The position numbers and the translations under genes were made by a program. DNA of 64,000 bases from an uncultured bacterium (GTDB taxonomy: Bacteria > Oederibacteriota > PGYV01 > Palsa-1178): positions 7,500 through 71,499 of the forward strand of contig CALAOR010000057.1 of assembly GCA_937889595.1 (NCBI GenBank). The letters run 5' to 3'. The notes under the pieces are model-generated. The model did not search any database and was not told the DNA's origin. It saw nothing but the letters and a program-made list of their open reading frames with translations. How positions within the stretch are numbered: position 1 is the first letter of the stretch; the number at the start of each line of letters is the position of its first letter. This document shows positions 10,211-26,709 of the stretch, one piece after another.

Positions 10211-10834
10211 TTAACTCACCCTTATCGCCGTCAGCAGCACTTTCACCGAAGGCTCGTCCGGTATCAGCAGCAGATACCCTTTTATGGCTTTTTCATTTGC
10301 CTCGGAAAATTGGGTTTCTATCGACAATATATGCGATGACATTCCGTCAAATCCGTCCGCTAATGACGAAAAAATGGCGCTTGCTATGTCAAACACCAGG
10401 TTCGGAACGGACGGCAGCAGCATGAGCCCCAAAAACTCGTTCAGCGAATTCATGTATGCGCCTGCCAGTATGTTTCCTGTTTCTTTTATCGCCGAGTTGC
10501 CGACTTCGGACAGCACTTTTGTCGACCCGGCGGGTTTTTGCAGCAGCAAATCAACCAGATTTAAGGCTGACTCCCTTGTCAAAAGCAGGAGTATTTTTGA
10601 AGTTATATCGCCCAGGACATTCATGATAACCCCTGCTACCAGCGTATTTGGGTCCCCCAAAAGCGAATCAATCTCCTGTGTCTTGATCACTTTTACTTCA
10701 GGCACGGATATCATAATTTTTTTCTTAATAAGCTGTGACAGGGCCGTGGCAGCGTGCCCGGCGCCTATGTTCCCGACTTCCTTTAAAGCATCTATCTGGG
10801 CGTCTGATAATGTCTGTAAACTGTTGTCCGACAC
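10211..10834 (-). CDS. cheC: CheC-family CheY-P phosphatase (copy 1)
   Basis: Two CheC consensus motifs (EVGNIGAGHAATALSQL and EVGNSAIKETGNILAGAYMNSL...P). Confidence 0.85.
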   Translation of the reverse strand: MSDNSLQTLSDAQIDALKEVGNIGAGHAATALSQLIKKKIMISVPEVKVIKTQEIDSLLGDPNTLVAGVIMNVLGDITSKILLLLTRESALNLVDLLLQKPAGSTKVLSEVGNSAIKETGNILAGAYMNSLNEFLGLMLLPSVPNLVFDIASAIFSSLADGFDGMSSHILSIETQFSEANEKAIKGYLLLIPDEPSVKVLLTAIRVS

Positions 10835-10940
10835 GGGGTCTCCTGTTGATTTTGATTTGTTCTCTGTTCTCTGTTCTACGTTCTATGTTATAAGCACTTT
10901 GTCCTTACACAGAACAAAGAACATAGAACATAGAACACTC

Positions 10941-12974
10941 TTAAACCATTTTGAGGTTGCTCTCAATAAGCGCCTGTATGTCCACGATCAGGCTGATCGA
11001 ACCGTCACCGAGTATGGTAACTCCCGAAAAACCTTTGGCAAACTTTAAAAATTCCCCCAGGCTTTTTATGGCTATTTCCTGCTGTCCCAATACTGAATCA
11101 ACAGTCAAGGCTATTTTTTTATCCCTTGCTTCTATTATCACCATATTTACTATTTCACTTTCCTTCTGCCTTCCTTTTCCTATCAGTTCGGAAAGCGAAA
11201 GCACGGGCACAACTTCGCCGCGCAGTATTATGACCCGCCTTGCCTGTATGTCCTTTATGTCTTTTGAAGGGAATTCAACGGTTTCTATGGTATGTATGAC
11301 CGGTATCGCATATGTGGCGCCGGCGGCCTTGACTAACAGGGCCTGTATTATGGCAAGCGTAAGGGGGAGCTTGAGTATTGATTTCATGCCCTCTCCCTGA
11401 TAATTTTCCATCCTGAATATCCCGCCGAATGCCTCTACTTTTGTCTTCACAACGTCGACTCCGACCCCCCTGCCCGACACATTATCCACTTTCTCGGCCG
11501 TTGAAAATCCGGGGATTGAAATTAAATTTACAAGTTCATCATCGGTTAAGGTGTCCAGTTTGTCAAGCGGCATGAGTTTTTTTTCAATTGCCTTTTTCCT
11601 GACTTTCTCCAGATTGATGCCGCGCCCGTCATCGGAAACTTCAATGATTACGGAGTTGCGGTCGCGCCGGGCGGAGAGCCTTATCACTCCTTTTTTTGTT
11701 TTGCCCGCGTTCTCACGCTGTTCGGGTGTTTCCAGGCCGTGTGCTATGCAGTTGCGGACCAGGTGGAGAATGGGTTCGTTTATTTCCTCTAATACCGTCC
11801 TGTCTATCTCTATGTCGCCTCCTGTTATCTCCACTTCAACCAGTTTTCCGGCCTGGCTGCTCAAATCGCGCACTATGCGCGGATAACGGTCAAATATATG
11901 GGAAACGGGGAGCATCCTGACGTCGGTTACCTCTATCTGCAGTTCGTCTATGATCCTGTCAAACTCATCCACGGTCGACGCTAAATCCCTGTAAGTCTTG
12001 TTCCTTGCTATCTGGTCAAGCCTTATCTTGGCTATAACAAGCTCGCCCACCAGGTTCATCATGGAATCAAGCTTTTCTATATTCACACGGACGCTTTGCG
12101 AGATTGCAGATGGTTTTTTTTCATTCTCAGCCGCAATTATTTCCTTATCACCGTTTTCAGCGTGCTTAAGATTTTCCTTTATTTCCTTTTTTTGAGCGCG
12201 TACTTCTTCTATGTCCGCCTTTTCAATTTCAGCTATCCTGGATATTGACTGTTCTATTTCCTGCGCAGGCGCTTTTGATACAAAACCCAGCTCAAAAGAA
12301 TTGTCAAAATTTCCTTCCTCTATGTCTTTTGCCTTAGGTGAAGATTTTACTATCTCTCCTTTTTCAGACAAATTGCGCGAGACCATGAAAGCCCTGACGC
12401 TTTTAAAAGCGCATGTCCTGGCTATGGTGACTTTTATCCTGTAGACTTTCATCCCTTGCGCGGCCGCTTCATTTAATATGAGGTCCTCTATGATAATGCC
12501 TGTTTCCGTTTTTAACGGGTCCGTTTCTCCGCTTAAAGACGCGGCAGGTACGGCCTGACGCGGTTGGGCGGCGGTTTTTATTTCCCGGGCAGGCGCCGAG
12601 CTTTTTGCCTTAATCTGGATTATTATATCCTTATAGCCTTTCGCAAAATCAACGTTTTGGTTCCTTATATTGTCGATAAACTCCTGCATTACATCTATGG
12701 ACCTAAAAAGCAGGTTTACTATGTCAATATCGGGCGCGAGCGTTCCGCCCCTGATCCTGTCCATAACGTCTTCGAGCATGTGGGTAAACTCAGCCAACTT
12801 ATCGTAGCCCATGGTTGCCGACATGCCTTTTAAGGTATGGGCCGCCCTGAAAAGTTCGTTTAAGGGCGTTAAGTCCTCAATGTTCTTTTCAAAATTAAGG
12901 AGAGCCTTGTTTAAGTTGTTTATGTTTTCCACAGCTTCCTCTAAAAACGCCTCTTTGTAGCTCTCAGTGTTCAT
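10941..12974 (-). CDS. cheA: Chemotaxis histidine kinase CheA
   Basis: Hpt (HTLKGMSATMG), dimerisation, HATPase_c and C-terminal CheW-like domains. Confidence 0.95.
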   Translation of the reverse strand: MNTESYKEAFLEEAVENINNLNKALLNFEKNIEDLTPLNELFRAAHTLKGMSATMGYDKLAEFTHMLEDVMDRIRGGTLAPDIDIVNLLFRSIDVMQEFIDNIRNQNVDFAKGYKDIIIQIKAKSSAPAREIKTAAQPRQAVPAASLSGETDPLKTETGIIIEDLILNEAAAQGMKVYRIKVTIARTCAFKSVRAFMVSRNLSEKGEIVKSSPKAKDIEEGNFDNSFELGFVSKAPAQEIEQSISRIAEIEKADIEEVRAQKKEIKENLKHAENGDKEIIAAENEKKPSAISQSVRVNIEKLDSMMNLVGELVIAKIRLDQIARNKTYRDLASTVDEFDRIIDELQIEVTDVRMLPVSHIFDRYPRIVRDLSSQAGKLVEVEITGGDIEIDRTVLEEINEPILHLVRNCIAHGLETPEQRENAGKTKKGVIRLSARRDRNSVIIEVSDDGRGINLEKVRKKAIEKKLMPLDKLDTLTDDELVNLISIPGFSTAEKVDNVSGRGVGVDVVKTKVEAFGGIFRMENYQGEGMKSILKLPLTLAIIQALLVKAAGATYAIPVIHTIETVEFPSKDIKDIQARRVIILRGEVVPVLSLSELIGKGRQKESEIVNMVIIEARDKKIALTVDSVLGQQEIAIKSLGEFLKFAKGFSGVTILGDGSISLIVDIQALIESNLKMV

Positions 12975-14035
12975 TTTGCTTCCCTTGTCATTATATTTAT
13001 TTCTTCGGTTATAAAATCCGCTATCTCATTTATGGGAAGGACCTTATCCGCGTAACCCTTATCAACTACGGATTTCGGCATTCCGTAAATCACGGAAGTG
13101 TCCTTGTCCTGGACTATTATCCTTGCTTTTTTTTCCTTTATTTTTTCCACCCCTGCTGTCCCGTCCCTGCCCATACCGGTCAGGATAACTCCTATAAGAC
13201 TTCCTTCAAAAACTTTTGCGGCGGAAAATAATGTCATGTCAGCGCATGGCCTGACCCCGAGCCTGGTCGGTTCCTGGTTCAATTCCACCCTGTATTCCGC
13301 GCCGGATTTTAATATTTCCATATGGTAATTGCCGGGTGCCACATAAGCCGTACCGGCTTTGATTATCTCGCCGTGCACAGCCTCCTTGACATGTATGAGA
13401 GATAATGAGTTAAGCCTGTCGGCAAGCGATTTAGTGAACCCTTCCGACATGTGCTGTATAATAAGGTATGAAGCCGGCAGATTGCGGGGTATTTTCGGCA
13501 CTACTTCGGTTAAGGCCCGTGGCCCTCCCGTTGATGTTGCTATTATTACCATAATCTCATTTTTTTGCTGTATTTCTTTTTCAGGATGTTTTACTTCCAC
13601 GTCTTCGGGCAGTGTAAAGGTTACCTTGTTCAAATCTATACTTTTTGCGGCCTTTATTTTTTCAACAAGCTCCTTCTGTATCTTTTTTATGTCCAGCGAT
13701 ATTTCGCCTGAAGGCTTGCATACAAAATCCACCGCCCCATACTGAAGTGCCTTAATTGTGATATCCGCGCCTTTGGGCGTGTAGGCTGACAACATGATCA
13801 CCGGGGTCGGTTTTTCGCTCATTATGTAGCCTAAGGTATGCAGCCCGTCCATTTCCGGCATTTCAACGTCAAGAGTGATTACATCCGGGGACAATTCCAT
13901 AGTTTTCTTAAATGCGTCCCTGCCGTCTTTGGCGGTCGCTATAACCTCTATATCCGGATCCTCGTTTAACATGTCCGGAATTATCTTGCGCATGAAAGCT
14001 GAGTCATCGACGACCAAGACCCGTATTTTAGCCAT
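12971..14035 (-). CDS. cheB: Chemotaxis methylesterase CheB (REC + CheB_methylest)
   Basis: N-terminal receiver domain (VLVVDDSAFMR) and a methylesterase domain with the catalytic Ser-His-Asp region. 4-bp overlap with cheA. Confidence 0.95.
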   Translation of the reverse strand: MAKIRVLVVDDSAFMRKIIPDMLNEDPDIEVIATAKDGRDAFKKTMELSPDVITLDVEMPEMDGLHTLGYIMSEKPTPVIMLSAYTPKGADITIKALQYGAVDFVCKPSGEISLDIKKIQKELVEKIKAAKSIDLNKVTFTLPEDVEVKHPEKEIQQKNEIMVIIATSTGGPRALTEVVPKIPRNLPASYLIIQHMSEGFTKSLADRLNSLSLIHVKEAVHGEIIKAGTAYVAPGNYHMEILKSGAEYRVELNQEPTRLGVRPCADMTLFSAAKVFEGSLIGVILTGMGRDGTAGVEKIKEKKARIIVQDKDTSVIYGMPKSVVDKGYADKVLPINEIADFITEEINIMTREAK

Positions 14036-14038
14036 ATA

Positions 14039-14401
14039 TTACTCCTGGAGCGTTCTGTCTACAGCTTCCAACACTCTTGTAGGTTGGAAAGGCTTTATGA
14101 CAAAATCCTTTGCTCCTGCCTGTATTGCTTCTATCACGAGCGCCTGCTGCCCCATGGCGCTGCACATCAGTATCTTAGCATTTGGGTCAAACTTCATTAT
14201 TTCCTTTACTGCCTGTATTCCGTCTATTTCCGGCATTATTATATCCATGGTCACAATATCCGGCCTTAACTCCTTGTATTTTTCTATGGCATCCCTGCCG
14301 TTTACGGCCTCGCCCGCTATCTCAAGGTCCTTTTTCTTTAATATGCCGGCCAGGATGTTCCTCATGAATTTTGTATCATCAACTATTAGGACTTTCTTCA
14401 A
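14039..14401 (-). CDS. cheY: CheY-like response regulator (copy 1). Probable TTG start at 14401 preceded by AAGGAGG; the longest ORF extends to 14425.
   Basis: Receiver domain with the DD...D...K signature. RBS AAGGAGG lies 5 nt upstream of the internal TTG. Confidence 0.85.
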   Translation of the reverse strand: MKKVLIVDDTKFMRNILAGILKKKDLEIAGEAVNGRDAIEKYKELRPDIVTMDIIMPEIDGIQAVKEIMKFDPNAKILMCSAMGQQALVIEAIQAGAKDFVIKPFQPTRVLEAVDRTLQE

Positions 14402-14870
14402 ATTTTCCTCCTTCAGATAGCGCAATAATTTTAAGTTTGTCCTGTTCGTCCTCGGTAAATATTTTTTCTATGTCAAGCAGGACTATTATTTTATCTTCTA
14501 TTTTTACTATCGACTGTATATACCGCCCACCCGCGCCGGTTACAGTTGCCGGAGCCGCAAGCATATCGCTTTCTTTTGCGTTTATGACTTTCGTTACCTC
14601 GTCAACCACCACTCCCACAAGCTGGTGCTTGGCATATTCCACTATGACGATACGGAACATTATGGTCGCTTCCTTGCTTTCCATGCCAAAACGCCTGCGG
14701 AGGTCTATAATCGGGATTATTTTACCCCTCAAATTAATGACCCCTTCTATAAAATCCGGGGCCGTAGGAACCTCGGTTATCTCCTTAAGGCGTATTATTT
14801 CAACGACTTTCATGATCTCAAAAGCGTAGTCGTCCTCCCTTATTTTGAATCCTACTATTTTGCGTTCCAT
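14379..14870 (-). CDS. cheW: Chemotaxis coupling protein CheW
   Basis: Single CheW-like domain (EIIRLKEITEVPTAPDFIEGVINLRGKIIPIIDLRRRFG). Confidence 0.9.
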   Translation of the reverse strand: MERKIVGFKIREDDYAFEIMKVVEIIRLKEITEVPTAPDFIEGVINLRGKIIPIIDLRRRFGMESKEATIMFRIVIVEYAKHQLVGVVVDEVTKVINAKESDMLAAPATVTGAGGRYIQSIVKIEDKIIVLLDIEKIFTEDEQDKLKIIALSEGGKFEESPNS

Positions 14871-14873
14871 GGC

Positions 14874-16148
14874 TTAGGCCTTCTTTTCCAAATGGAATTT
14901 TGTCATGAGTCCCCTTAACACTTCGGCTGTCTGGGCCAATTCCTGCGCCTGCGCCGCTATTTCTTCCATGGAAGCTGTCTGCTCCTGGGTTGAAGCCGAG
15001 GCCTCCTGTGTTCCCGCAGCAGTTTCCTCGGCAACGGCCGCGATTTCCTCAACCGCTTTTACGACCTTGTCGGTATCCTGGGCCTGTGCCTTTGTAAGCA
15101 ATGTTATTTCGCCGGAAAGTTTTAGGACTTTTGCCACCACTTCATCTATCCTTTTCAGCACTTCGCCGCTTTCCGTCACCACTTTTTTTCCTTCTTCCGT
15201 TTCCTTTACGCCGATCATGATGGCCTTTACCACGCCGTCTGTTTTATCATGTATATCCTCAACAAGCCGTGTTATTTCCCTGGCGGAACTGGCCGAGCCT
15301 TCGGCAAGTTTCCTTACCTCGTCCGCGACAACCGCGAAACCGCGTCCTGCCTCGCCTGCGCGCGCCGCTTCTATAGCCGCATTTAAGGCCAGCAGGTTTG
15401 TCTCGTCGGCTATCTCGGTTATTGTGTTAACGACTTCCTCTATTTTTTCCGAATAAATTTTAAGCTCCTCCACGGAATCTTTTGCCTTGTTCGTCACATT
15501 GACTATGTCTTCCATCTTTATTATGGTTTCCCTTACCGCGTTCATGCCGTTTTCCGTTGCTTCTTTTGCGGATTTTGCCACACCAAGGACTTCCTCTGAT
15601 TTTTGGGCGACTTCCTGTATGGAATTTGACATGTTTTCCATGATACGGGATGTCTCCACGGTGCGCTCCGCCTGCTGCTCCACCCCGCGGGCTATCTGCT
15701 GCACTGTCGACGATATCTCCTCAGCCGAGGAGTTTATCTGCTGGGTGGAAGCGGATAAATTTTCAGCCAGGTTCATAATATTATCCGAAGAATCCCTGAA
15801 TTTTGAGAGCATGTTCTTAAGGCCGTCTATCATATTGTTCACGCTCTTGGTTATGTTCTTTAAAAACCCGGATTGTATTTTTGAGCCGTCGTTTATTTCT
15901 CCTAAAGCAAGCAAATCAAACTTAACGGCAAGCTTGTCAAACTTGTCCGCGCCTATTTTCAGGGCTGCGGCTGAATTCACGGCCATGAGCACGATGCATA
16001 AGCCCAGTATAAGCAGGAAGAAATTCAGGCTTTTTATCTCAATTCCGCCAAAAAAACATATAAGGAAAAATATAAGTCCCGCGCATAACGACACGCCGGC
16101 GTCGATCAATATGATCTTTGCCGTCAAGTCAAGATCTTTTTTTTCCAT
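14874..16148 (-). CDS. Methyl-accepting chemotaxis protein (2 TM, minimal periplasmic loop)
   Basis: MCP signalling domain with highly conserved hairpin tip ([39 protein letters not shown]). Confidence 0.9.
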
Positions 16149-16163
16149 AACTTTAACCGCCCG

Positions 16164-16646
16164 TCATATGGTTTTTGTCCCGGCTGAATAACTTTTCACA
16201 ATAGCCGTCTTTGTCATGACCGAAAACTCTATGGTCCTGCCGTAATTACCGCCCGTGTCTTCGCCAATTAACGCGATGCCCTTGGAAGCCAGGCATTCTT
16301 TGGCTTTTTTAATATTTCTCTCCCCTATCGTCTCCATTTCATTTTTAACATCGAACATTTTCGCGCCGCCGAACATTTTGGCCTGCATGTCCTTTAAGTT
16401 GACGCCTTCTTTTATCATAGCCTTGACCATGTTTTCTATCCCCGCGTCCAGATACTTATTTTCAATGCCTTCTTTCCTGTTGTGCGGCCTCTCCGGCAGT
16501 ATACCGTGAAGCATCGCCGCGACCGGACGCAGCCTGTCATAACAGACAACGATAATACATGACCCTACCCCGAAAGCAGCCAGCAGATCCAAATTTTTCC
16601 CGGTTTTCAATTCGCCCATATTGACCTTTATCGAATCGGACGCCAT
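16164..16646 (-). CDS. cheD: Chemoreceptor glutamine deamidase CheD
   Basis: CheD family with the conserved Cys region (GVGSCIIVVCYD). Confidence 0.85.
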   Translation of the reverse strand: MASDSIKVNMGELKTGKNLDLLAAFGVGSCIIVVCYDRLRPVAAMLHGILPERPHNRKEGIENKYLDAGIENMVKAMIKEGVNLKDMQAKMFGGAKMFDVKNEMETIGERNIKKAKECLASKGIALIGEDTGGNYGRTIEFSVMTKTAIVKSYSAGTKTI

Positions 16647-16650
16647 TAAT

Positions 16651-17274
16651 TTAAGAGCCTTTTACGGTATTATTCAGTGCTTCCAGTATTTTTGCCATAG
16701 CATTTTTATCAGGTATAAGAAACAGCTTGCTTTTCAAATTTGTTATTTCCTCGGTCATTTCATTTTCAATCAGCATAGCCTCAGGCCCCATTTCAGCCAG
16801 TTCGGCCGAGATTGTTTCAAATATGGCGTCGACCATGTCCACTGCCAGAGCCGGGACGGAAGGCACCGAATTCAGGCCGATAAATTTTGCTATCGCATTA
16901 AGGTAGGCGGATACGATTATGTTCCCTATTTCTTTCAGGGCCGACTGCTCTGTCTCCCCGAATTCCTTTGTCTGCCCGAGCTTTCTCCTCATGAGCAGGT
17001 CCAAAAGCAGGAAAACTTTGTCCTGCGGGAATATTAAAAGCGCCCGCGCCTGTATTTCCCCGAATATGCGCATATAAACAGCAGCCACTATTTTTGCCTC
17101 ACGTGAGACCATTTCAGCCATTTTTTCGACCGGAACCATTACAATTGACGGCACATCTATGCTTATATCCCTGCCGAGCAGCTGGGACAGGGCCGTGGCC
17201 GCGCTTCCCGCGCCTATGTTCCCGAGTTCCTTTAAAGCATCCCGCTGAAAGTCACTGAGCTTATTATCGGCCAT
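16651..17274 (-). CDS. cheC: CheC-family CheY-P phosphatase (copy 2)
   Basis: Two CheC motifs (ELGNIGAGSAATALSQL; EIGNIIVSAYLNAI...P). Adjacent to cheD as in the B. subtilis cheC-cheD pair. Confidence 0.85.
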   Translation of the reverse strand: MADNKLSDFQRDALKELGNIGAGSAATALSQLLGRDISIDVPSIVMVPVEKMAEMVSREAKIVAAVYMRIFGEIQARALLIFPQDKVFLLLDLLMRRKLGQTKEFGETEQSALKEIGNIIVSAYLNAIAKFIGLNSVPSVPALAVDMVDAIFETISAELAEMGPEAMLIENEMTEEITNLKSKLFLIPDKNAMAKILEALNNTVKGS

Positions 17275-17276
17275 AG

Positions 17277-17642
17277 TCAGTTTCCTATAATTTTGCTTAC
17301 AGTTTCAAGCACGTTGGATTGTTCAAACGGCTTTACTATATAATCTTTCGCGCCTGCCTGTATGGCTTCTATAACCAGCGCCTGCTGCCCTATGGCGCTG
17401 CATATAAGTATGTTTGCGTTCGGAAATTCAGCGATTATGTTTTTAAGCACATCGATACCGCCCATTTCAGGCATGACCATGTCGGATATCAGCATATCCG
17501 GCTTCAACTCCTTGTACTTTTGTATGGCCTCGCGCCCGTTTGCGGCCTCTCCAACAACTTCATATCCGCCGCCCACAAGTATGTTCCTTAGCATCATGCG
17601 CATAAAAGACGCGTCGTCAGCTATTAATATTCTTTTTGCCAT
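17277..17642 (-). CDS. cheY: CheY-like response regulator (copy 2)
   Basis: Single receiver domain; paralogue of the 14039..14401 gene. Confidence 0.85.
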   Translation of the reverse strand: MAKRILIADDASFMRMMLRNILVGGGYEVVGEAANGREAIQKYKELKPDMLISDMVMPEMGGIDVLKNIIAEFPNANILICSAIGQQALVIEAIQAGAKDYIVKPFEQSNVLETVSKIIGN

Positions 17643-17736
17643 ATATTTTCTCCTTTTATTTTTTTCAGGCCCCTTGGGGCATTATTTTTGCGTTTAACAT
17701 ATTTTTCATTTTTTAATTTAAAATTTCAATTTTTAT

Positions 17737-18075
17737 TTATACAGCGTACTCCCCGCGTTCACCCGTCCTGATCCTCACCACGTCAGTAATGTCCGAAATG
17801 AATATCTTGCCGTCCCCTATCCTTCCGGTCCTTGTTATTTCTATTATCCCGCCGAGGGTTTTCTCGACATCAGAATCTTTCAGGACAATTTCTATCTTTA
17901 CTTTCGGCAGAAACTCCACTGTCACGTCCTGTCCTTCCAGGACGTCATTTTTTCTTTTCTGAAAACCATAACCTTCCACGTTTGAAATTGTTATACCGTT
18001 TATTCCCATTTCCATGAGCTTTCTTTTTATAACCTCGAACTTCACCGGCTGCACTATTATGGTCAGTTTTTTCAT
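17737..18075 (-). CDS. PII (GlnB/GlnK) family signal-transduction protein. Probable start at MKKLTII, abutting the TPR gene stop.
   Basis: FLPKVKIEIV, GRIGDGKIFI and VVRIRTGE align with the E. coli GlnB B-loop and C-terminal regions. The T-loop lacks the Tyr51 uridylylation site. Confidence 0.85.
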   Translation of the reverse strand: MKKLTIIVQPVKFEVIKRKLMEMGINGITISNVEGYGFQKRKNDVLEGQDVTVEFLPKVKIEIVLKDSDVEKTLGGIIEITRTGRIGDGKIFISDITDVVRIRTGERGEYAV

Positions 18076-20273
18076 TTGATCAGTTTCTTCCTCGAAGATG
18101 ACGGCGAAAGCAGGAGTTCCTTTCTCCATACTTCCACCATTCTTATGTTTTCCTGCGCCGACCTTGACAATTCGCTGTCAGGCGTTATTTGCATATATTT
18201 TTTCCACATTTCTATGGCTTCATTCCACCATCCCTTGAACCTGTAAACCTCACCGAGTTTAAAAAACACTTCCACTATTTCAGGGCTCAATTCAATTGCT
18301 TTGTGATATTCGATGTCGGCTTCATCCCACCATTCTTTTTTAAAATAAGCGTTAGCGAGGTTAAAATGCCCGCGGCCATTCTGGGGGTTCCTGGAAACCA
18401 CGGAAATAAACACCTTAACGGCAGCATCAAAATCGAAGGTATCATAGAGCACGGACCCCATATTGTTCAGGGCATCCTGATTGTCAGGCTCTATTTTCAA
18501 TACTTTGTTATATTCTACAATAGCCTCCTGCAATTGTCCAGTATTTCTATACTCATTGCCTAGATCATAGGCCACGGAAGCGTTTGACTGGGCCTGATTT
18601 TGTTTTTCCTTTAATTTTTCTATGGTTTCCTTGAATACGACGTCTTTTTTCATCGCTGAATCCAGGTTTTTTTTGGCAACCGCGTACTCGGGATTTATCC
18701 TTAAAGCCTGGTCAAAAAAACGCTGGGCTTCCTTGAAAAAATTCTTTTTATAGTAAGCCACGCCAAGGTTATTATATGCCTTATAATATTCCCTGTCTAT
18801 TTCCACCGCCTTTTGATACTCTTCTATGGCTTTTTCAATATTACCGAGATTCTTATACGCTACCCCCATTGAATTATGGGCCACTGCATTATTCGGTTGG
18901 ACAGACAGGGTTTTTTGATATTCTATAATAGCCTCTTCATTCCTTCCTTTATCGGTTAAAACAAGTCCTAGGTACAGGTTTATCTCGGGCTTTTTTATGT
19001 AATTAGGCAGTATTTCAAGCGCGCGCCTGAGTTCGTTCACTGCCTCGTCATACCGCTTCAGTTTGTAATAGGATACCCCCAGGTAATAGTGGGCCTCATC
19101 GTCATAGGCTTCTTTGACCAGGTGCCGTTCGAGCACTTCTACAGCTTCCTGGATCTTTTCTTCCTTATACAAAAGTATGCCGCGTTCCAGTTCTATCCTT
19201 ACATATTCAGGGTTTTCTTCCGCAATCGCGTCCAGTACCTGTTTTGTTTTTTCAAATTCCTTCATTTCCCTGTAGGCCACCGCTATGTTGACCTTTGCCT
19301 CCACCATATCGGGCTTCAGCTTTAATGTCTGTTTGAATATCTCAACAGCTTCCTTTAGTATTCCTTTTTTTATCAGAAGCTCGCCGAAGAAATTATAGTA
19401 GGCAGGCTGCTTGGAATTATAGTGGATCGCCATTTTTATCTGGTTTATCGCGTCGTCGGTGTAGCCTTTAAGTTTGTAGACTTTTGCGAGGTTAAAATAC
19501 GCTTCTTCTTTTCTCTTTTCATCGGGAAGTTTTTCCACTTCCTCGCCCCGTTTTACTGCGGAATTGGTTTCATAATAATCTATGACAAGGCTTTTATTTG
19601 ACTGTATGAAAGCCGGGTTTAATTCTACGGCATGGTTATAGCACATACCCGCTTCCTCGTCTTTGCCTGTCTCGCCGTATACAAAACTTAAATTATAATA
19701 GGCGAGCGCGTATTCCTTGTTAAGCTGTATCGCTTTTTTCAGCTGTTCTTCCGCCTCGTCGTACATTCCGGTTTTATAAAGTGTTTCACCGAGGTTGTTG
19801 CGCAGTTCCGCGTAATTCGGGAATTTTTTCAGGGCCTCCCTGAAGACCGCTTCAGCCGTATTGTATTCACCCATGTTTTTGTATATAACGCCGAGCAGGT
19901 TCTGCGCGAGCAGGTGCTCGGGGTTTAATTCAAGGCATCTTTTAAGTTCTTTGACCGAAACTTCATAATCGCCGGTAAAACTCAGCGATTTTCCAAAGTT
20001 AAAATGTGTTTCAGGATCCGAAGGATACAGCTGGACAGCCTTCTTATATGCGGATATGGCCCTGTCATATATACCGGTCTGCTTGTTCACTGCCTTCAGG
20101 TTTGCCTGTGCCTGGGAATAATTTGGGTTTATGGACAGGGATTTTTTGAACTGTTCTATGGCTTCATGAAACATTCCTTTTGAATAATAATATACTCCCA
20201 CGTTATTTAAGGCGGTCGCGTCATTCTCGGAATTATTTTCCTTCAGTATTTCCCTGTCAGGGGCGCCCGGCAT
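18072..20273 (-). CDS. TPR-repeat protein (more than 15 TPR units)
   Basis: Repeated W-LG-Y-A-F-A-P 34-residue TPR consensus throughout. Confidence 0.85.
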   Translation of the reverse strand: MPGAPDREILKENNSENDATALNNVGVYYYSKGMFHEAIEQFKKSLSINPNYSQAQANLKAVNKQTGIYDRAISAYKKAVQLYPSDPETHFNFGKSLSFTGDYEVSVKELKRCLELNPEHLLAQNLLGVIYKNMGEYNTAEAVFREALKKFPNYAELRNNLGETLYKTGMYDEAEEQLKKAIQLNKEYALAYYNLSFVYGETGKDEEAGMCYNHAVELNPAFIQSNKSLVIDYYETNSAVKRGEEVEKLPDEKRKEEAYFNLAKVYKLKGYTDDAINQIKMAIHYNSKQPAYYNFFGELLIKKGILKEAVEIFKQTLKLKPDMVEAKVNIAVAYREMKEFEKTKQVLDAIAEENPEYVRIELERGILLYKEEKIQEAVEVLERHLVKEAYDDEAHYYLGVSYYKLKRYDEAVNELRRALEILPNYIKKPEINLYLGLVLTDKGRNEEAIIEYQKTLSVQPNNAVAHNSMGVAYKNLGNIEKAIEEYQKAVEIDREYYKAYNNLGVAYYKKNFFKEAQRFFDQALRINPEYAVAKKNLDSAMKKDVVFKETIEKLKEKQNQAQSNASVAYDLGNEYRNTGQLQEAIVEYNKVLKIEPDNQDALNNMGSVLYDTFDFDAAVKVFISVVSRNPQNGRGHFNLANAYFKKEWWDEADIEYHKAIELSPEIVEVFFKLGEVYRFKGWWNEAIEMWKKYMQITPDSELSRSAQENIRMVEVWRKELLLSPSSSRKKLIK

Positions 20274-20275
20274 CG

Positions 20276-20881
20276 TTATTTTTCCTCAAAGAATATATCA
20301 GGCTTAATCAGGGTTATTACTTCGCCCTCATCCTTGATCAGCCCGGAAATATATTTCTTATCCACAGTGAATGAATACTTGGTTATATTGGAGAAACTCG
20401 ACGACTGAAAGTTTCTGACCGACATAACTTTATCAACCAAAAAGCCGATTATCTTTTCTTTGAATTCTATGACCATTATCCTTGTTTCATCCGTGATTGA
20501 GTCCTCCACGCCGAATATCCTGCGGGAAATGGAAATCACGGGTATTACCTCGTTTCTTATGCTGATCATCCCCAGGATGTATCCCGGCAGGTTCGGCAGG
20601 CGTGTTATGTTCCTGTATTTTATTATCTCCCTTGAAAAAATAATTTCCATCCCGAAAAGTTCCTTGTTTATTTCCACGACCACAACAAGAAGCCCTTTTA
20701 ATACATTTATGATATTTTCTTCCTTGACGAAACGCATACGGACAAGTATTTTTCCCAGGGGTTCCTGTGGCTCCAAAGTCTGCTGTTCCTTTAAAGCTTC
20801 ATCCAGCTGTTCTTTCGTCAGGAAACCGGCCTGTATTAAAAGCTCGCCTAAACTTTTATCCTGTCCCTTAAAAACATCCAT
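20276..20881 (-). CDS. CheW-like domain protein with an N-terminal T2SSE_N/MshEN-like (putative c-di-GMP-binding) module
   Basis: N-terminus SLGELLIQAGFLTKEQLDEALKEQ...PLGKILVRMRFVKEENIINVLKGL fits the RLGxxLLxxGLLxxxxLxxxLxxQ tandem motif (the first R is replaced by S). The C-terminal approximately 140 aa is a CheW-like fold (ITRLPNLPGYILGMISIRNEVIPV). Confidence 0.65.
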   Translation of the reverse strand: MDVFKGQDKSLGELLIQAGFLTKEQLDEALKEQQTLEPQEPLGKILVRMRFVKEENIINVLKGLLVVVVEINKELFGMEIIFSREIIKYRNITRLPNLPGYILGMISIRNEVIPVISISRRIFGVEDSITDETRIMVIEFKEKIIGFLVDKVMSVRNFQSSSFSNITKYSFTVDKKYISGLIKDEGEVITLIKPDIFFEEK

Positions 20882-20895
20882 GCTTTATGACCACC

Positions 20896-22068
20896 TCATG
20901 CCCCGCCGAGAAGTTTCAGGTTTTTCCTGATTATCTCGTTTTCAGGGTTTAATTTTAGGGATTTTGTCCAGTAATCTTTTGCTTTTTCAGGGTTGTTCTC
21001 TTTCATTGATATGTTCCCCATCTTATAAAAAACATCCGCAGACTCCCTGCCGCTGTCTATGCTCTTTAAAAAATTTTCCTTGGCTTCCTTGTACTGTATC
21101 TTCCTATAAAAAATATGACCTATGTTCTCAAAAATCACAGGATCGTCCTTTTTAATTGCAAGCGCCTTCTGATATTCCCCGAGCGCTTCGTCGAGCTGGT
21201 CCTCTTCCGCGTATATAAACCCCAGGGCTTTATGGGTTTCAGCGTCCGCGGCGCCGAGCTCCGCAACTTTTTTATATTCTTCCAGCGCTTCCTTTTTTTT
21301 CCCTATTTTAGAATACACTTCACCGAGGATTATATATATTTCTGCGTTCCTGAATTTACTTTTCTTGGCCAGCTCAAGCTGCGCGATTGCCAGCTGATAT
21401 TCGCCTTTTTCAAAATAAAGCACGCCGAGATTAAAGGCAACCGCCGCGTCCCGCGGATTTATCACCACGGCTTTATTATAATGCTCTATGGCCTTGTCAA
21501 ACATTTTAAGTTCCCTGTATACGTTCCCCAGCATGGAGTTAATGCCCGGACTTTTGGGGTTTATCTTTATCACATTTTCATATTCCTCGGCTGCTTCCTT
21601 ATACTTTTTTTCCGATTCAAAAATATAGCCCAGCTTAAAACGCAGTTCTATGTTTGACGGGTCTTTTTCAAGCAGTGCCCTGTATTCGCGTTCCGCGTCA
21701 ATGGGTTTTTCCATCTTTGCGTATAAATCACCCAGCGCGTGCCTTGCCTGGATGTCATTCTTATTGATCTCCAGGGCTTTTTTGTACTGCTCAAGGCCTT
21801 TGTCAAAGTTCCCCATATTTGCATATAATTTACCGAGTTTTATTATGACGTTGACATTCACTGGGTTTATTTTCAGCGCCTTTTCATATTCTTTGATGCC
21901 ATCGTCATAATTGCCTTTATAGACATAGGCATTTCCAAGGAATGTGCGGACTTCCGCGTCATCCTCGTTTATGGAAAGCGCCTTTTCAAATTCCTTTATT
22001 GCCTGGTCATAACGCTTGCTCATGGTAAAAGCAAGCCCCAGATTTATATGGTCCTGTACCGTATCCAT
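20896..22068 (-). CDS. TPR-repeat protein
   Basis: About 10 tandem TPR units (AxxxLGxxYxxxGxYxxAIxxYxKALxxxP). Confidence 0.85.
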   Translation of the reverse strand: MDTVQDHINLGLAFTMSKRYDQAIKEFEKALSINEDDAEVRTFLGNAYVYKGNYDDGIKEYEKALKINPVNVNVIIKLGKLYANMGNFDKGLEQYKKALEINKNDIQARHALGDLYAKMEKPIDAEREYRALLEKDPSNIELRFKLGYIFESEKKYKEAAEEYENVIKINPKSPGINSMLGNVYRELKMFDKAIEHYNKAVVINPRDAAVAFNLGVLYFEKGEYQLAIAQLELAKKSKFRNAEIYIILGEVYSKIGKKKEALEEYKKVAELGAADAETHKALGFIYAEEDQLDEALGEYQKALAIKKDDPVIFENIGHIFYRKIQYKEAKENFLKSIDSGRESADVFYKMGNISMKENNPEKAKDYWTKSLKLNPENEIIRKNLKLLGGA

Positions 22069-22874
22069 TATATTTTTCTGAATATCCTCTCTTTTATATT
22101 TATGCAGTTAAACCTGTCGCGAAAGTCCTGCAGCATAGTTTCCGTCTTGCCGAGAAAAAGTATTCCGTTCTCCTTTAAGGAGTCGTAATAATGCCCCAAT
22201 ACCGTTCTTTGCAGCTCCCGCGTGAAGTATATGATAACGTTCCTGCAAAAAACAACGTCAAAAAAATTTTTTTTGTACGGCTCCATCAGGTTCAATTTTA
22301 TTATCTTTACTTTCTGCCTGATTGATTCTTTAACAGAGAAATTCTTCCCGTCGTCGGTGAAGAAGTACCTGGTTTTCCTGTCTTGCGCTATGTTGTCGAG
22401 CGTCCTTCCCTCATATATCCCCGCCGCTGCTTTTTGTATGGCGATTATATCGAGGTCAGTCGCGTATATTTCAAAACCATAATTCATAATTCCCATTTTT
22501 TCCGCTGTTTCTTCTATTGATATGGCTATGGAGTACGGTTCCTCGCCCGTGGAACAACCGGCGCTCCATACCTTAAGCGGCCATTTTATGTTTCTCAATA
22601 TATCAGGCAGTATGGTATTCTCAAGTTCCACAAAAATTTCCGGGTCCCTAAAAAACTGCGTCACGTTTATAGTAAGTTTATCGAGCAGTATATCATACTC
22701 GCTCCTGTGGTTCTGCAGATAGATAAAATAACCGTCATATTTTGTGAACTGCAAGGACCTCATGCGGACCGCAATGCGCCTTTTGATGTAATTTTCCTTG
22801 TACTGGCTCACATCAAGGGCTTTTTCCAGGCGTATACCGTCTTTTATTTTTATAAAAGCTTCTTCTTCATTCAT
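22068..22874 (-). CDS. cheR: Chemotaxis protein methyltransferase CheR
   Basis: CheR N-terminal domain (TQFFRD) and a SAM-binding domain (WSAGCSTGEEPYSIA; CRNVIIYF). Confidence 0.9.
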   Translation of the reverse strand: MNEEEAFIKIKDGIRLEKALDVSQYKENYIKRRIAVRMRSLQFTKYDGYFIYLQNHRSEYDILLDKLTINVTQFFRDPEIFVELENTILPDILRNIKWPLKVWSAGCSTGEEPYSIAISIEETAEKMGIMNYGFEIYATDLDIIAIQKAAAGIYEGRTLDNIAQDRKTRYFFTDDGKNFSVKESIRQKVKIIKLNLMEPYKKNFFDVVFCRNVIIYFTRELQRTVLGHYYDSLKENGILFLGKTETMLQDFRDRFNCINIKERIFRKI

Positions 22875-24280
22875 TAATTCACTAAACCCTTTGTGCTTTG
22901 TTTATTGCCTTCTTCAGCGGGCGTATTTTCCATCGAATCAAGGAACACCTTGACTATGTGCGAGTCAAACTGGCTGCCGGCGCAGCGTTTCAGTTCGGTT
23001 GCAGCTTCCTCTTTGGTACGCGCCCTGCGGTACGGCCTTTCTGCCAGCATTACCGAGTAAGCATCGGCGACGGCGCATATTCTGGAACCAAGCGGTATTT
23101 TATCGCCAATTAATTTCTTGGGGTAGCCTCTACCGTCAAAATGTTCATGATGATACAAAATGATGGGCAGTATGTCTTCAAAAATATCCATCCCGTTCAG
23201 TATATCCACCCCATCCTGCGGGTGCTTTTTTACCGTTTCATATTCTTCCGCCGTCAAGGTCGAGGGTTTTTTCAGTATCTCGCTGCTTATTTTTATTTTT
23301 CCTATGTCGTGCAGCAGCGCGGCGTGTTTTATTTTTTCGCACTCTTCGGGTGGCAGTTTCATTTGTTGGGCTATCTGCAACGCGTACTTCATGGTTGAAA
23401 ACGAATGTCCGTGCGTATCATGGTCCTTTATGTCTATGGCCATAACAAGCGTTTCTATGATATTTTCATGGTTATCCGACATCTGCCCCAGCATGTCATG
23501 TTTTTCTATTATTATAAAAACCTGGGCCGCGAAAAATTCTGCTATATAAATATCATTGTGTGAAAATCCGGTTTTTTTGTAAAGAACTACGGCGCCGCTT
23601 AAGCCTTTTTCGCCTTTAACCGGAATAACCGTCATAAATCCTTCGCTTATATCCTGAACCAGCCTTAAGAACCCCGCCTGGACATTCCTCAAAAATAACG
23701 GGGACAGGTCATTGTCCGCCACGCGCATTTCTATTTCCTTGTCCTTATATACCCCGTAGGAGTGCTTTAGTGAAAGATTTGTTTCTCCGGGCTTATCCGG
23801 GCCGTATATGAGAACATGGCTGCATCCGCTTAAATTTGTTACATTGCGCGCGAGCAGGCTAAAGAGCTCGGGACGGGTTAAACCTTTTTTTATCTCCAAA
23901 AGCATATCATGGGCGATAATGAATGAATTGGTTATTTTATCCACAAAACTTTTTTCTTCAAGCGATGATTTATCCGCTGCATCTTCATACAGGGGTTTAA
24001 GCCTGATCCTGTCGGAAAGCACGGCAAACGCCGCGTAAACAAGGGTATTAACCGCTATATCAGCAAGGGCGGCTTCATGATGCATGGAATAAAACGCAAA
24101 ATTAAAAAACAAACCGCTTAATATCCCGTTGGCCCATCCCGAGCTGATTGAAACCAGTATGACCGCGGCTCCCGCGGCTAAAAAAACATAACCAGCTTTA
24201 ATTCCCATGAAATCAACGGCCAGCATCAAAAGTACGGCTCCCGCTGTGATTAATACAATGTATCTTTTTTTCAGCCTCAT
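22874..24280 (-). CDS. Membrane-anchored HD-GYP domain c-di-GMP phosphodiesterase with a GAF-like sensor region
   Basis: N-terminal TM helices. HD motif (LLHDIGK) and HHEHFDGRGYP (HD-GYP signature). Confidence 0.85.
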   Translation of the reverse strand: MRLKKRYIVLITAGAVLLMLAVDFMGIKAGYVFLAAGAAVILVSISSGWANGILSGLFFNFAFYSMHHEAALADIAVNTLVYAAFAVLSDRIRLKPLYEDAADKSSLEEKSFVDKITNSFIIAHDMLLEIKKGLTRPELFSLLARNVTNLSGCSHVLIYGPDKPGETNLSLKHSYGVYKDKEIEMRVADNDLSPLFLRNVQAGFLRLVQDISEGFMTVIPVKGEKGLSGAVVLYKKTGFSHNDIYIAEFFAAQVFIIIEKHDMLGQMSDNHENIIETLVMAIDIKDHDTHGHSFSTMKYALQIAQQMKLPPEECEKIKHAALLHDIGKIKISSEILKKPSTLTAEEYETVKKHPQDGVDILNGMDIFEDILPIILYHHEHFDGRGYPKKLIGDKIPLGSRICAVADAYSVMLAERPYRRARTKEEAATELKRCAGSQFDSHIVKVFLDSMENTPAEEGNKQSTKGLVN

Positions 24281-24291
24281 ATTTTCACCGT

Positions 24292-25509
24292 TTATTTGGC
24301 GGACTTTACCACGTCGCCGGCATTAATTACGCCTTCCTGTTCCGTGACAACCGCCACGCTTGTATCCTTCATGGAATTTATTACCATAAGTTTTCCTGTC
24401 TTGTGATAAACATCATTATTACCCGTGGCCTTATTTAGTATGGACCTGTAAACGGTCATTATTTCGCCGGGCATCAACCCGGCTTTTACCCCTTTATTCA
24501 GGTAAACTATGTCTTTCTTTTTAACATTTATAATATTATTCTGGACTTTTATTATGAAAGCCTCTATTACACCGGTTTTCTTTTTTATCCTTGTGGTGAC
24601 TTTATTATAGTAATCCTTAAAGTCCTTCCTCATTTTTATTTTAAAGTTCTGGCTTACCGGCCCGTAACTCTTCACTATATTTACCTTCCATATTCCCTCA
24701 TCGGCTTTTTCAATTATTTTTCCAACCGCGCGGACGTCAATAAGCCTGCCTTTATCTTCGCCTGTTACAATATCCTCAACGTTCTCGTTATCCGTATATA
24801 TAAGGAACTGCATGCCTGTTTTTATGGATTTTCCGACTGTAACCTTTATGTACGCGGACATTCCCTGAACTATAATTTCACTGCCGTCCACGTCATATAT
24901 AAAACCGTCTTCGGGAAAATTGTCGCTGATAAAACCGGCGCGTTCCACCATGACATATCCCGCTTTTTCAATCCTGTTCGTACCTTCCGCTTCCATAAGT
25001 ATTATGCCGCCTGTCTCGCCTTCTTCGGCATCAGGCCCTTCAAATGTCACGTTTACTTCCGACTTGTCCGTATCCCCTTCATCCACAGGCGTTGTTTTCT
25101 TTTTTGATATTATGTATTTTTCAAGTTCTTCCGTTGATGTTTCGCCGGGATTTAAGATAACGATCCCTTCTTCCTCCGGGGATGCCGTGTTGTCTATTTC
25201 GATTTTATTTACTTTTTCTTCCGTTACCGCGGTTGCCGCCTCCCGGGCAGGCTCCGGTGTGGACATTCCGGCTTGAATCTGCGTGGTTGTTACCGCCGCA
25301 GTTTGTCCTGCAGCTGCCTGTCCAGCAGGTCCAGGAGTAGCTGCAGCGGGTTTTGATGCCGTATCAGGCGCCGTTGTCGGCTGGACTGTAGCTTCAGAGC
25401 TCCCGCTTTTTTCAACCGCGACTGGTTCAGCAGCCGCGGCATATGTGTGAAATAATATTATCGCCATTCCGCAGGACATAAAAAATAGGAGCATTTTTGT
25501 TTTCTTCAT
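24292..25509 (-). CDS. Secreted protein with an Ala/Thr/Pro-rich linker and a C-terminal beta-rich domain. Function unknown.
   Basis: Signal peptide and a low-complexity A/T/P/Q region. First-but-one gene of the chemosensory operon. Confidence 0.5.
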   Translation of the reverse strand: MKKTKMLLFFMSCGMAIILFHTYAAAAEPVAVEKSGSSEATVQPTTAPDTASKPAAATPGPAGQAAAGQTAAVTTTQIQAGMSTPEPAREAATAVTEEKVNKIEIDNTASPEEEGIVILNPGETSTEELEKYIISKKKTTPVDEGDTDKSEVNVTFEGPDAEEGETGGIILMEAEGTNRIEKAGYVMVERAGFISDNFPEDGFIYDVDGSEIIVQGMSAYIKVTVGKSIKTGMQFLIYTDNENVEDIVTGEDKGRLIDVRAVGKIIEKADEGIWKVNIVKSYGPVSQNFKIKMRKDFKDYYNKVTTRIKKKTGVIEAFIIKVQNNIINVKKKDIVYLNKGVKAGLMPGEIMTVYRSILNKATGNNDVYHKTGKLMVINSMKDTSVAVVTEQEGVINAGDVVKSAK

Positions 25510-25523
25510 GTCATCCCCTTAAA

Positions 25524-25919
25524 TTAAAATGATGTTGAATATTGCCGCAGCAGTGTCTTTGCCTGATCTATATTCTTCGCGTCAGGATAAGTTTCTATGT
25601 ACATCTTTAGTGTTTCCCTGACCTTAACCGGCTGGATTTCTTTTTCGTAAATTAAAGCTGACTTAAAAATCAATTCCGGTACCCTGGCTGATTTGCCTTC
25701 ATATCGCAGGTTGTATTTGTCAATGAGTTCCAGGGTGCGTTCAAAATTACCTATTAAATCCATATATCGTATGTTTAAATAAGCCGATTTTTCCAGATCG
25801 GGTTCTTTTAAATTGTCCACGGACCAGGTTTCGATGTACTTGCTTATTCTTTCGGAATCTCCTATTATATAGCCTGCGGCCAAAATTATTATAACGGCAA
25901 AAATCAACATATTTTTCAT
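25524..25919 (-). CDS. Small membrane-anchored helical (TPR-like) protein. Function unknown.
   Basis: N-terminal TM/signal anchor, then a helical repeat-like sequence. First gene of the operon. Confidence 0.45.
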   Translation of the reverse strand: MKNMLIFAVIIILAAGYIIGDSERISKYIETWSVDNLKEPDLEKSAYLNIRYMDLIGNFERTLELIDKYNLRYEGKSARVPELIFKSALIYEKEIQPVKVRETLKMYIETYPDAKNIDQAKTLLRQYSTSF

Positions 25920-26261: not shown

Positions 26262-26303
26262 GACTCTAAAGAAAATCAGAGGGCAAGAAACTTGCCCTCT
26301 GAT
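26262..26303 (-). terminator. Rho-independent terminator of cspA
   Basis: Perfect 13-bp stem (atcagagggcaag/cttgccctctgat) with loop aaa, followed on the minus strand by TTTTCTTT. Confidence 0.75.
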
Positions 26304-26324
26304 TTTTGTGCGTATTTTAGGTTA

Positions 26325-26525
26325 TTAAGCGCCGACTACGTTTGAAGCCTGCGGGCCTTTTGCACCTTCAGATACATCAAAGGTGACTTCCTGTCCTTCT
26401 TTTAGTGTCTTGAAACCGTCTCCCTGAATAGCCTGGAAGTGTACAAATACATCTTTTCCGCCTTCCTGTTCGATGAAGCCGTACCCTTTCTTGTCGTTGA
26501 ACCATTTCACTTTTCCTTTTGCCAT
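26325..26525 (-). CDS. cspA: Cold-shock protein (CspA family)
   Basis: RNP1/RNP2 motifs (KGYGFI, VFVHF). Start at the ATG preceded by GGAGG ([10 protein letters not shown]). A long 5' UTR (about 170 nt) is typical of csp genes. Confidence 0.9.
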
Positions 26526-26709
26526 TACCAAAACCTCCAAAAAAATTAAGAATCTTGTAGAACAAGTCTACAACGTAAGGAGAATGTTATCAAAAATTTT
26601 AGGGAAAGTCAAATATTAAATAAATAGTTATGGGGTATTCGGCATCAGTGTAAGAGCCAAGAGACTGGAGCCTGGAAACCGAAACTTAAGGTTTATTATA
26701 AAACAGCGG

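Follow-up and report, generated by a model that had tools for sequence, protein, structure and literature searches.

An MshEN_N-CheW fusion protein in a chemotaxis operon of uncultured bacteria, a candidate c-di-GMP-responsive adaptor

MshEN domains bind the second messenger cyclic di-GMP, here c-di-GMP, through the motif (R/K/L)LGxx(L/V/I)(L/V/I)xxG(L/V/I)(L/V/I)xxxxLxxxLxxQ, two copies of which are separated by 5 residues (PMC5013675; consensus widened in PMC11731258). The isolated N-terminal subdomain, MshEN_N (residues 1-62/65), suffices for binding, with a dissociation constant (KD) of 0.35 uM (PMC5013675). Fusions of MshEN_N to the chemotaxis proteins CheA and CheX have been listed, but none to a stand-alone CheW (Wang et al. 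2016), and our full-text literature searches found no description of a fusion of MshEN, GSPII or T2SSE_N to CheW. We describe such a protein from an uncultured bacterium, encoded in a 64,000-nucleotide stretch (the window) of contig CALAOR010000057.1, assembly GCA_937889595.1, positions 7,500 to 71,499. The two-domain protein MshEN_N-CheW is genuine. Its architecture is new but belongs to a known kind, and it amounts neither to a new principle nor to an established receptor. We give a probability of about 50% to the reading that it would be an accessory CheW, entering the chemosensory array by its canonical domain and carrying a detuned but functional c-di-GMP sensor whose occupancy would be set by an HD-GYP phosphodiesterase of the same operon.

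The N-terminal region is an MshEN-type module, as the first-pass annotation of this DNA had proposed. The NCBIfam model NF053729 ("cyclic di-GMP-binding domain, MshE-related", 53 positions) matches residues 11-62 with 55.1 bits (E 4.7e-15), above its curated cutoff of 38 bits, and also matches 29/29 of the aligned family members. A profile of the family N-termini, searched against the PDB, retrieved MshEN/GSPII domains only (PilF at 8.9e-28, PilB at ~1e-11 and MshE, entry 5HTL, at 2e-10). AlphaFold2 (AF2) places helices at residues 11-17, 23-35, 42-48 and 54-62. The N-terminus was modelled and fold-searched by itself, Foldseek of the full-length model detecting the CheW domain only. The isolated model has a predicted local distance difference test score (pLDDT) of 81, and its best folds in the PDB are the c-di-GMP-bound structures 5HTL (MshE) and 8PDK (PilF GSPII-B), with query-based TM-scores (TMq) of 0.74-0.77, a root-mean-square deviation (rmsd) of 1.3 A and 33-43% identity. 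The first-pass annotation had proposed a check with PF05157 (T2SSE_N) and would have taken its absence as refutation. In the Pfam scan PF05157 indeed has no match in the 201-residue protein, even at E<=10. According to the alignment of Wang et al. 2016, the start of this model falls within motif II, and most of the model represents the C-terminal subdomain. The fusion protein is missing that alpha/beta subdomain, MshEN_C, of the full, ~145-residue MshEN domain. A miss by PF05157 is therefore to be expected, and its use as a refutation was invalid.

The remainder of the protein is CheW-like, again as had been proposed. PF01584 (CheW) matches residues 66-195 at 94 bits against a gathering threshold of 23.5 (E 8e-27), covering profile positions 2-131 of 138. 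Foldseek aligned the full model with the CheW structures 2QDL and 8C5V, with target-based TM-scores (TMt) of 0.82-0.87 and E 1e-13 to 2QDL, and the domain aligns with residues 19-136 of Escherichia coli CheW free of gaps. Residues E85, R109 and G104 correspond to E38, R62 and G57 of the E. coli protein, the conserved Glu-Arg pair and Gly of CheW, and are invariant in the family. Judged from these alignments, the CheW domain of the fusion is complete. It is more divergent than the other CheW of the operon (94 against 129 bits to PF01584), which fits an accessory rather than a core adaptor. In the AF2 model helix 4 of the bundle passes into beta-strand 1 of CheW at residue 64 without a linker. 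The Pfam scan found no Response_reg match in the fusion protein, so that it does not qualify as a CheV.

The start of the gene bears on whether the bundle belongs to the protein at all. The Shine-Dalgarno sequence overlaps the TGA stop of the preceding gene, and the next gene starts 2 nt past the stop codon of the fusion gene. The protein has about 50 full-length homologs (~200 aa) with which it shares 41-98% identity, and protein-level conservation of the first 65 residues extends to all of them; across 32 family sequences the N-terminal region is 45-91% identical. The annotated ATG is thus supported by the Shine-Dalgarno sequence, the 2-nt gap to the next start and the conserved first 65 residues. 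CheW is the sole Pfam match, and the source records name the homologs simply "chemotaxis protein CheW", as would be seen if the MshEN similarity were due to chance or to a wrong start codon and the true protein were a plain CheW. That explanation is ruled out by the NCBIfam and PDB-profile E-values given above, the conservation of the N-terminal residues in the ~50 homologs, the strong Shine-Dalgarno sequence before the annotated ATG and the confident AF2 model of the N-terminus.

Both copies of the MshEN motif can be read in the bundle (Table 1). Motif I deviates at position 1 only, where Ser10 replaces R/K/L; Leu11, Gly12, Leu26, Leu30 and Gln33 are retained. Motif II retains Leu42, Gly43 and Leu61 and has a conservative Ile57 at position 17, and deviates by Pro41 at position 1, Arg50 for the turn Gly at position 10 and Leu64 for Gln at position 24. 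The earlier statement that only the first Arg had been replaced, by Ser, thus overlooked Pro41, Arg50, Leu64 and a spacer of 7 residues. Most family members have the canonical spacer of 5; a 7-residue spacer has parallels in PilF 328-334 and in the PilB structure 5TSG. The replacement of the motif II Gln is due to helix 4 leading directly into strand 1 of CheW.

Column counts over the 32 family sequences show G12, G43, L26, L30 and L61 to be invariant (32/32) and L11, L42, I57 and Q33 to be nearly so (Q33 in 30/32). All six guanine-stacking hydrophobic residues, at motif positions 2, 17 and 21, are therefore kept, three invariant and three conservatively varied. Motif II starts with Pro in 31 sequences and with Leu in one, and its turn position 10 is Gly in 13/32. 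A distant member of 221 aa (P0174) has Leu at position 1 of motif II (ELLGRVLV), the residue found in the high-affinity domain PilF GSPII-B. Further invariant residues are Q7, K9, E54 and G63, and K44 is Lys in 31 sequences and Arg in one. The mean entropy of the 12 canonical ligand positions is 0.43 bits; it is 1.38 bits in the fold core and turns (Mann-Whitney P=0.0016) and 1.41 bits over all remaining positions (P=1.4e-4). The two Gly, the six hydrophobics and Gln33 rank as the domain's most constrained columns.

Published work allows these residues to be set beside measured affinities. The Gly at position 3 is essential, its backbone NH contacting the guanine, and the substitutions G11L and G40I abolish binding; the stacking Leu positions each have a >10-fold effect (PMC5013675). 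The residue at position 1 stacks on the other face of the guanine, where R, K or L is accepted (PMC11731258). Arg is dispensable there: K or L gives a KD of 2-6 nM, and PilF GSPII-B, with Lys and Leu, binds with 6 nM (PMC11731258). Gln at position 24 forms hydrogen bonds with a ribose hydroxyl and a phosphate. PilF GSPII-C, which has a KD of ~0.3-0.46 uM, carries Pro at position 1 of motif II, and its stretch 301-355 aligns gap-free with the fusion protein, 7-residue spacer included. The MshEN_N domain embedded in an Aeromonas CheA binds with a KD of 2.6 uM despite Met at position 1 and a long spacer. Variants of the form [K/R]-P-L-G in PilF-C, NfrB and TM0837 are paralleled by the invariant Lys9 one residue before motif I, and Lys44 parallels Arg199 of PilF-B. 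The non-binders XpsE and Pseudomonas aeruginosa PilB have lost the position-3 Gly and the stacking hydrophobics. The first-pass annotation had made its prediction hang on the key Arg, Leu and Gln ligand positions; in the alignment with validated binders the stacking hydrophobics, both Gly and Gln33 are kept, whereas both position-1 Arg and the motif II Gln are lost. We regard the predicted binding of c-di-GMP by the bundle, at a physiologically useful affinity, as evenly poised between yes and no.

A gene for an HD-GYP phosphodiesterase lies nearby. The fusion gene sits in an 18-gene chemotaxis operon on the minus strand, which comprises, in order of transcription, two unknown genes, HD-GYP, CheR, a tetratricopeptide repeat (TPR) protein of 390 aa (TPR390), MshEN_N-CheW, a TPR protein of 733 aa (TPR733), P-II, CheY, CheC, CheD, a methyl-accepting chemotaxis protein (MCP), a standard CheW, a receiver (REC) protein, CheB, CheA, a CheC-like protein and an FtsA/PilM-like protein. 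All catalytic motifs of HD-GYP (HD and HHExxDGxGYP) can be read in the translation. Related loci were gathered with an alignment of 8 family sequences, and 16 were examined. Related contigs keep the gene order even where their fusion protein is no more than 42-50% identical, L009, L013 and L014 being exceptions, and the linkage of the fusion gene to CheA and MCP is syntenic in the loci long enough to show it, except in L013 and L014. HD-GYP lies upstream of CheR in 8/10 distinct related operons that reach that position. The HD-GYP gene noted earlier thus exists and is operon-linked in most related loci, but it is three genes upstream, with CheR and TPR390 between, and not two. The GGDEF gene that had been cited with it also exists (44244-45647, minus strand), but lies 23 kb away from the fusion gene and outside the operon. 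It encodes a long multi-pass membrane N-terminus and an active-site motif GGEEI, with Ile for the usual Phe, and is adjoined by a gene for a GT87-family glycosyltransferase (45677-46864).

If the protein is an accessory CheW with a working sensor, its CheW domain would insert in the receptor/CheA lattice, beside or in place of the standard CheW. The N-terminal bundle would still bind c-di-GMP, probably in the micromolar rather than the nanomolar range, by means of the backbone amides of Gly12 and Gly43, the clusters L26/L30/L42 and L11/I57/L61, and Gln33. The role of the missing position-1 Arg might be taken over by Lys44 and by Lys9, which is invariant and lies at position 0. Occupancy would be set locally by the HD-GYP enzyme of the operon, and could alter either the coupling of receptors to CheA by the adaptor or the recruitment of partners such as the flanking TPR proteins and CheR. 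This reading is favoured by the fold homology, the conservation of the pocket, the precedents of the GSPII-C Pro and of the Aeromonas CheA, the HD-GYP linkage and the intact CheW domain.

A number of observations weigh against it. Position 1 of motif I is small in all 32 family sequences (S/T/G/A) and never R/K/L, and position 24 of motif II is L, M or I, with Thr in one member, so that its Gln is lost. In MshE, R9A lowers binding by 83% with loss of all in vivo function, and Q32A lowers it by 61% (PMC4624772). In engineered PilF GSPII-A, returning Ser to position 1 of motif II abolished binding, and binding was measurable only after both Gln had been restored (PMC12002112). For PilF GSPII-B, Q190E binds ~80-fold more weakly and the double Q-to-E mutant is a non-binder. 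The bit score to NF053729 was rejected as a predictor of binding: controls scored 85 (VcMshE), 62.5 (PilF-B) and 57 (NfrB) against 55-58 for the fusion, and among non-binders XpsE scored 16.7 and PilF GSPII-A 54.3, the latter equal to both the fusion and the binder NfrB. PilF GSPII-A also retains the hydrophobic clusters. Finally, two related loci (L013 and L014) are without HD-GYP; these consist only of unknown-unknown-CheR-TPR390-fusion followed by housekeeping genes, with the rest of the che cluster elsewhere.

Alternatively, the bundle may be a degenerate, ligand-free MshEN_N whose present role is protein docking, so that partners, for example the flanking TPR proteins or CheR, would be tethered by it to the array via CheW. 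Three of the 12 canonical ligand positions (S10, P41 and L64) are off consensus, published mutants at those positions lose binding, and a non-binder, PilF GSPII-A, has the same HMM score. Protein binding is known for degenerate MshEN-like N-domains, and the complex of the Xanthomonas PilB N-terminus with PilZ (7LKM) was among the fold matches. TPR390 is moreover the only neighbour found in every locus (16/16), HD-GYP-less ones included; TPR733 is missing only from L013, L014 and L009, the last of which also lacks P-II. The most constant partners are thus TPR390 and CheR, with HD-GYP frequent but not obligatory. However, the position-3 Gly and the six stacking hydrophobics are more conserved than the fold core and have been lost in the true non-binders XpsE and P. 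aeruginosa PilB, the Lys before motif I is invariant, as in the [KR]-P-L-G of NfrB and of PilF-C, for which binding has been measured, and most loci have HD-GYP in the operon. A docking role is accordingly a serious possibility with the odds somewhat against it.

The altered positions 1 and 24 could also reflect changed specificity rather than decay, the pocket being functional and tuned to another nucleotide, such as pGpG or GMP (the HD-GYP product), cyclic GMP-AMP (cGAMP) or another guanine dinucleotide. The guanine-reading Gly amides and the hydrophobic clusters are kept, while the ribose- and phosphate-reading Gln of motif II and the two stacking Arg have consistently given way to other conserved residues (P41, K44, K9 and Q7), and VcMshEN binds cGAMP weakly (PMC5013675). 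There is no precedent for an MshEN_N that prefers another ligand, and we consider this explanation very improbable.

Returning to the accessory CheW with a c-di-GMP sensor, a more far-reaching form of it would have occupancy act as a direct switch, gating receptor-kinase coupling or the recruitment of TPR proteins and CheR inside the array. As the operon MCP is without a periplasmic sensing domain, such an array might be largely a sensor of intracellular c-di-GMP, with P-II/metabolic input. We hold this form to be unlikely; if true, a second messenger would here for the first time be seen to act on the CheW scaffold as such, via an Arg-free MshEN motif with a shifted Lys.

If the bundle does bind c-di-GMP, the adaptor layer of chemosensory arrays would be an entry point of the motile/sessile messenger into chemotaxis, the entry points demonstrated so far being limited to receptors, CheR, CheX-type phosphatases, CheY-like proteins and the motor. 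The MshEN motif would then extend to versions that lack R/K/L at position 1 and the second Gln, and c-di-GMP receptors could be predicted better across genomes. Should the bundle not bind, the family would provide a clean natural case of an MshEN_N that keeps its pocket residues yet is reused for docking, and a caution on motif-based receptor calls. The practical reach is limited in either case, since the family is confined to an uncultured phylum and fusions of MshEN_N to CheA and CheX were described already in 2016.

Table 1. Features of the MshEN_N-CheW gene and its operon. Positions are those of the window.
Feature	Position	Strand	Basis and remarks
MshEN_N-CheW fusion gene, stop included	20276..20881	minus	Open reading frame (ORF) list and full-length homologs; 201 aa
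Shine-Dalgarno sequence GAGGTGG	20891..20897	minus	Sequence reading; 9 nt 5' of the fusion-gene ATG
MshEN_N four-helix bundle, residues 9-64	20690..20857	minus	NF053729, PDB profile, AF2, fold match
Motif I, residues 10-33, SLGELLIQAGFLTKEQLDEALKEQ	20783..20854	minus	Alignment and column counts
Spacer, 7 residues, QTLEPQE	20762..20782	minus	Alignment
Motif II, residues 41-64, PLGKILVRMRFVKEENIINVLKGL	20690..20761	minus	Alignment and column counts
CheW domain, residues 66-195	20297..20686	minus	PF01584, Foldseek, alignment to E. coli CheW
HD-GYP phosphodiesterase, first recognisable signalling gene of the operon	22874..24280	minus	PF13487, E 8e-40
CheR methyltransferase, 1-nt overlap with the next gene	22068..22874	minus	PF01739, E 1e-54
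TPR protein, 390 aa, directly upstream of the fusion gene	20896..22068	minus	TPR Pfam matches
TPR protein, 733 aa, directly downstream, start 2 nt past the fusion stop	18072..20273	minus	Pfam
Remaining operon: P-II, CheY, CheC, CheD, MCP, CheW, REC, CheB, CheA, CheC-like	10211..18075	minus	Pfam and synteny
Canonical second CheW	14379-14870	minus	PF01584, 129 bits

The MshEN_N-CheW family and its che operon are conserved in metagenome-assembled genomes of FCPU426/Goldbacteria. The related contigs are labelled candidate division FCPU426 or Candidatus Goldbacteria, and some Spirochaetia or Methylomirabilis. Five loci (L008, L009, L011, L013 and L016) have the same operon at 50-64% identity and bear the labels "Spirochaetia" or "Candidatus Methylomirabilis"; both are probably errors of taxonomy or of binning. 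An exhaustive profile search covered 1.84 billion cluster representatives; of its best 150 matches only 4, one of them a 120-aa fragment, included both domains, and the others were multi-CheW proteins with 3-5 CheW domains. The family thus appears narrow, with at least 4 two-domain matches, a number that is a lower bound for distant MshEN_N-CheW fusions as it counts the best 150 matches. A word-indexed search with the 65-aa N-terminus alone scored 3 candidates. When the query was the N-terminal family profile, the matches were for the most part short pieces of MshEN_N from GspE, MshE and PilB, with no further CheW fusions among them. Within the window, the N-terminal family hidden Markov model (HMM) found no second MshEN_N protein among the ORFs, and an Rfam scan found no c-di-GMP riboswitch.

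Several other features of the operon were observed. The two genes at its head (24292-25919, minus strand), encoding 131 and 405 aa, have no Pfam match and occupy that place in nearly all related loci; in the 405-aa protein the N-terminus resembles a signal peptide and one region is rich in Ala, Thr and Pro. CheR and TPR390 (20896-22874, minus strand) overlap by 1 nt, are always adjacent and resemble, in split form, CheR-TPR fusions of the FrzF/WspC type. Together with the fusion gene they make up the block that is retained in L013 and L014. A P-II (GlnB-like) gene lies between TPR733 and CheY (17737-18075, minus strand) and is kept there in most related loci at 38-92% identity. It probably starts with the ATG at 18075 rather than at 18129, since its homologs have 112 aa. 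P-II is an unusual member of such an operon and hints at a metabolic input. The operon MCP (14874-16148, minus strand; 424 aa) carries at its N-terminus two hydrophobic helices with a ~5-residue loop between them, a hairpin membrane anchor without a periplasmic ligand-binding domain. A second MCP, with HAMP and an N-terminal region of ~200 residues, is encoded just outside the operon (27020-28819).

After the last che gene, a 706-aa protein with an FtsA/PilM/MreB-like actin-fold ATPase domain is encoded (7969-10089, minus strand), an arrangement that recurs in L003 and, at 65% identity, in L009; the protein may link the system with an output of cytoskeletal or pilus type. A full-length match of 93 bits to the cspA thermoregulator RNA of Rfam (26273-26708, minus strand) lies upstream of and overlaps a cold-shock-domain gene (26325-26540). 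The cold-shock-domain gene also precedes the operon in L001 and L003.

The nearest relatives of the bundle are Vibrio cholerae MshE (5HTL) and Thermus thermophilus PilF GSPII-B/C (8PDK), with which it has in common the position-3 Gly, the six stacking hydrophobics and the Gln of motif I. Residues E13 and K44 of the fusion parallel E170 and R199 of PilF GSPII-B, and the Pro at the start of motif II and the 7-residue spacer are shared with PilF GSPII-C. Unlike MshE and PilF, the fusion protein has neither MshEN_C nor an ATPase, motif I begins with Ser and has its invariant Lys one residue earlier, and the Gln of motif II has given way to a hydrophobic residue that belongs to CheW strand 1. Binding has been measured for MshE and PilF, and is predicted for the fusion. 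The Aeromonas veronii CheA with its embedded MshEN_N and the Geobacter lovleyi (MshEN_N)2-CheX likewise carry the module on a chemotaxis protein (Wang et al. 2016, Supplementary Tables 4 and 6). Here, however, the partner is a stand-alone CheW adaptor rather than a kinase or phosphatase, and the module is N-terminal and abuts the CheW fold.

CheV, a CheW-REC protein (PMC12691637), similarly combines a CheW domain with a small regulatory domain and brings a second signal to the adaptor level. Its regulatory domain is a C-terminal phosphorylatable receiver, whereas that of the fusion is N-terminal and of a second-messenger-binding type. With canonical CheW (E. coli CheW, Thermoanaerobacter tengcongensis 2QDL and the operon's second CheW) the fusion protein shares the two-barrel fold, the Glu-Arg pair, the Gly and a place in a che operon with CheA and MCP; it differs in its more divergent CheW domain and in the additional 65-residue N-terminal domain of sensory type. 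Inputs of the PilZ type to chemotaxis include P. aeruginosa MapZ with CheR1 and Tlp1, a PilZ-MCP of Azospirillum. Vibrio cholerae PlzC with CheX also ties c-di-GMP to chemotaxis signalling proteins and not to the flagellar motor (PMC12799141), as would the fusion. All of these employ a PilZ beta-barrel and target CheR, CheX or a receptor, whereas in MshEN_N-CheW the module is a helical MshEN_N bundle and its target would be the CheW scaffold.

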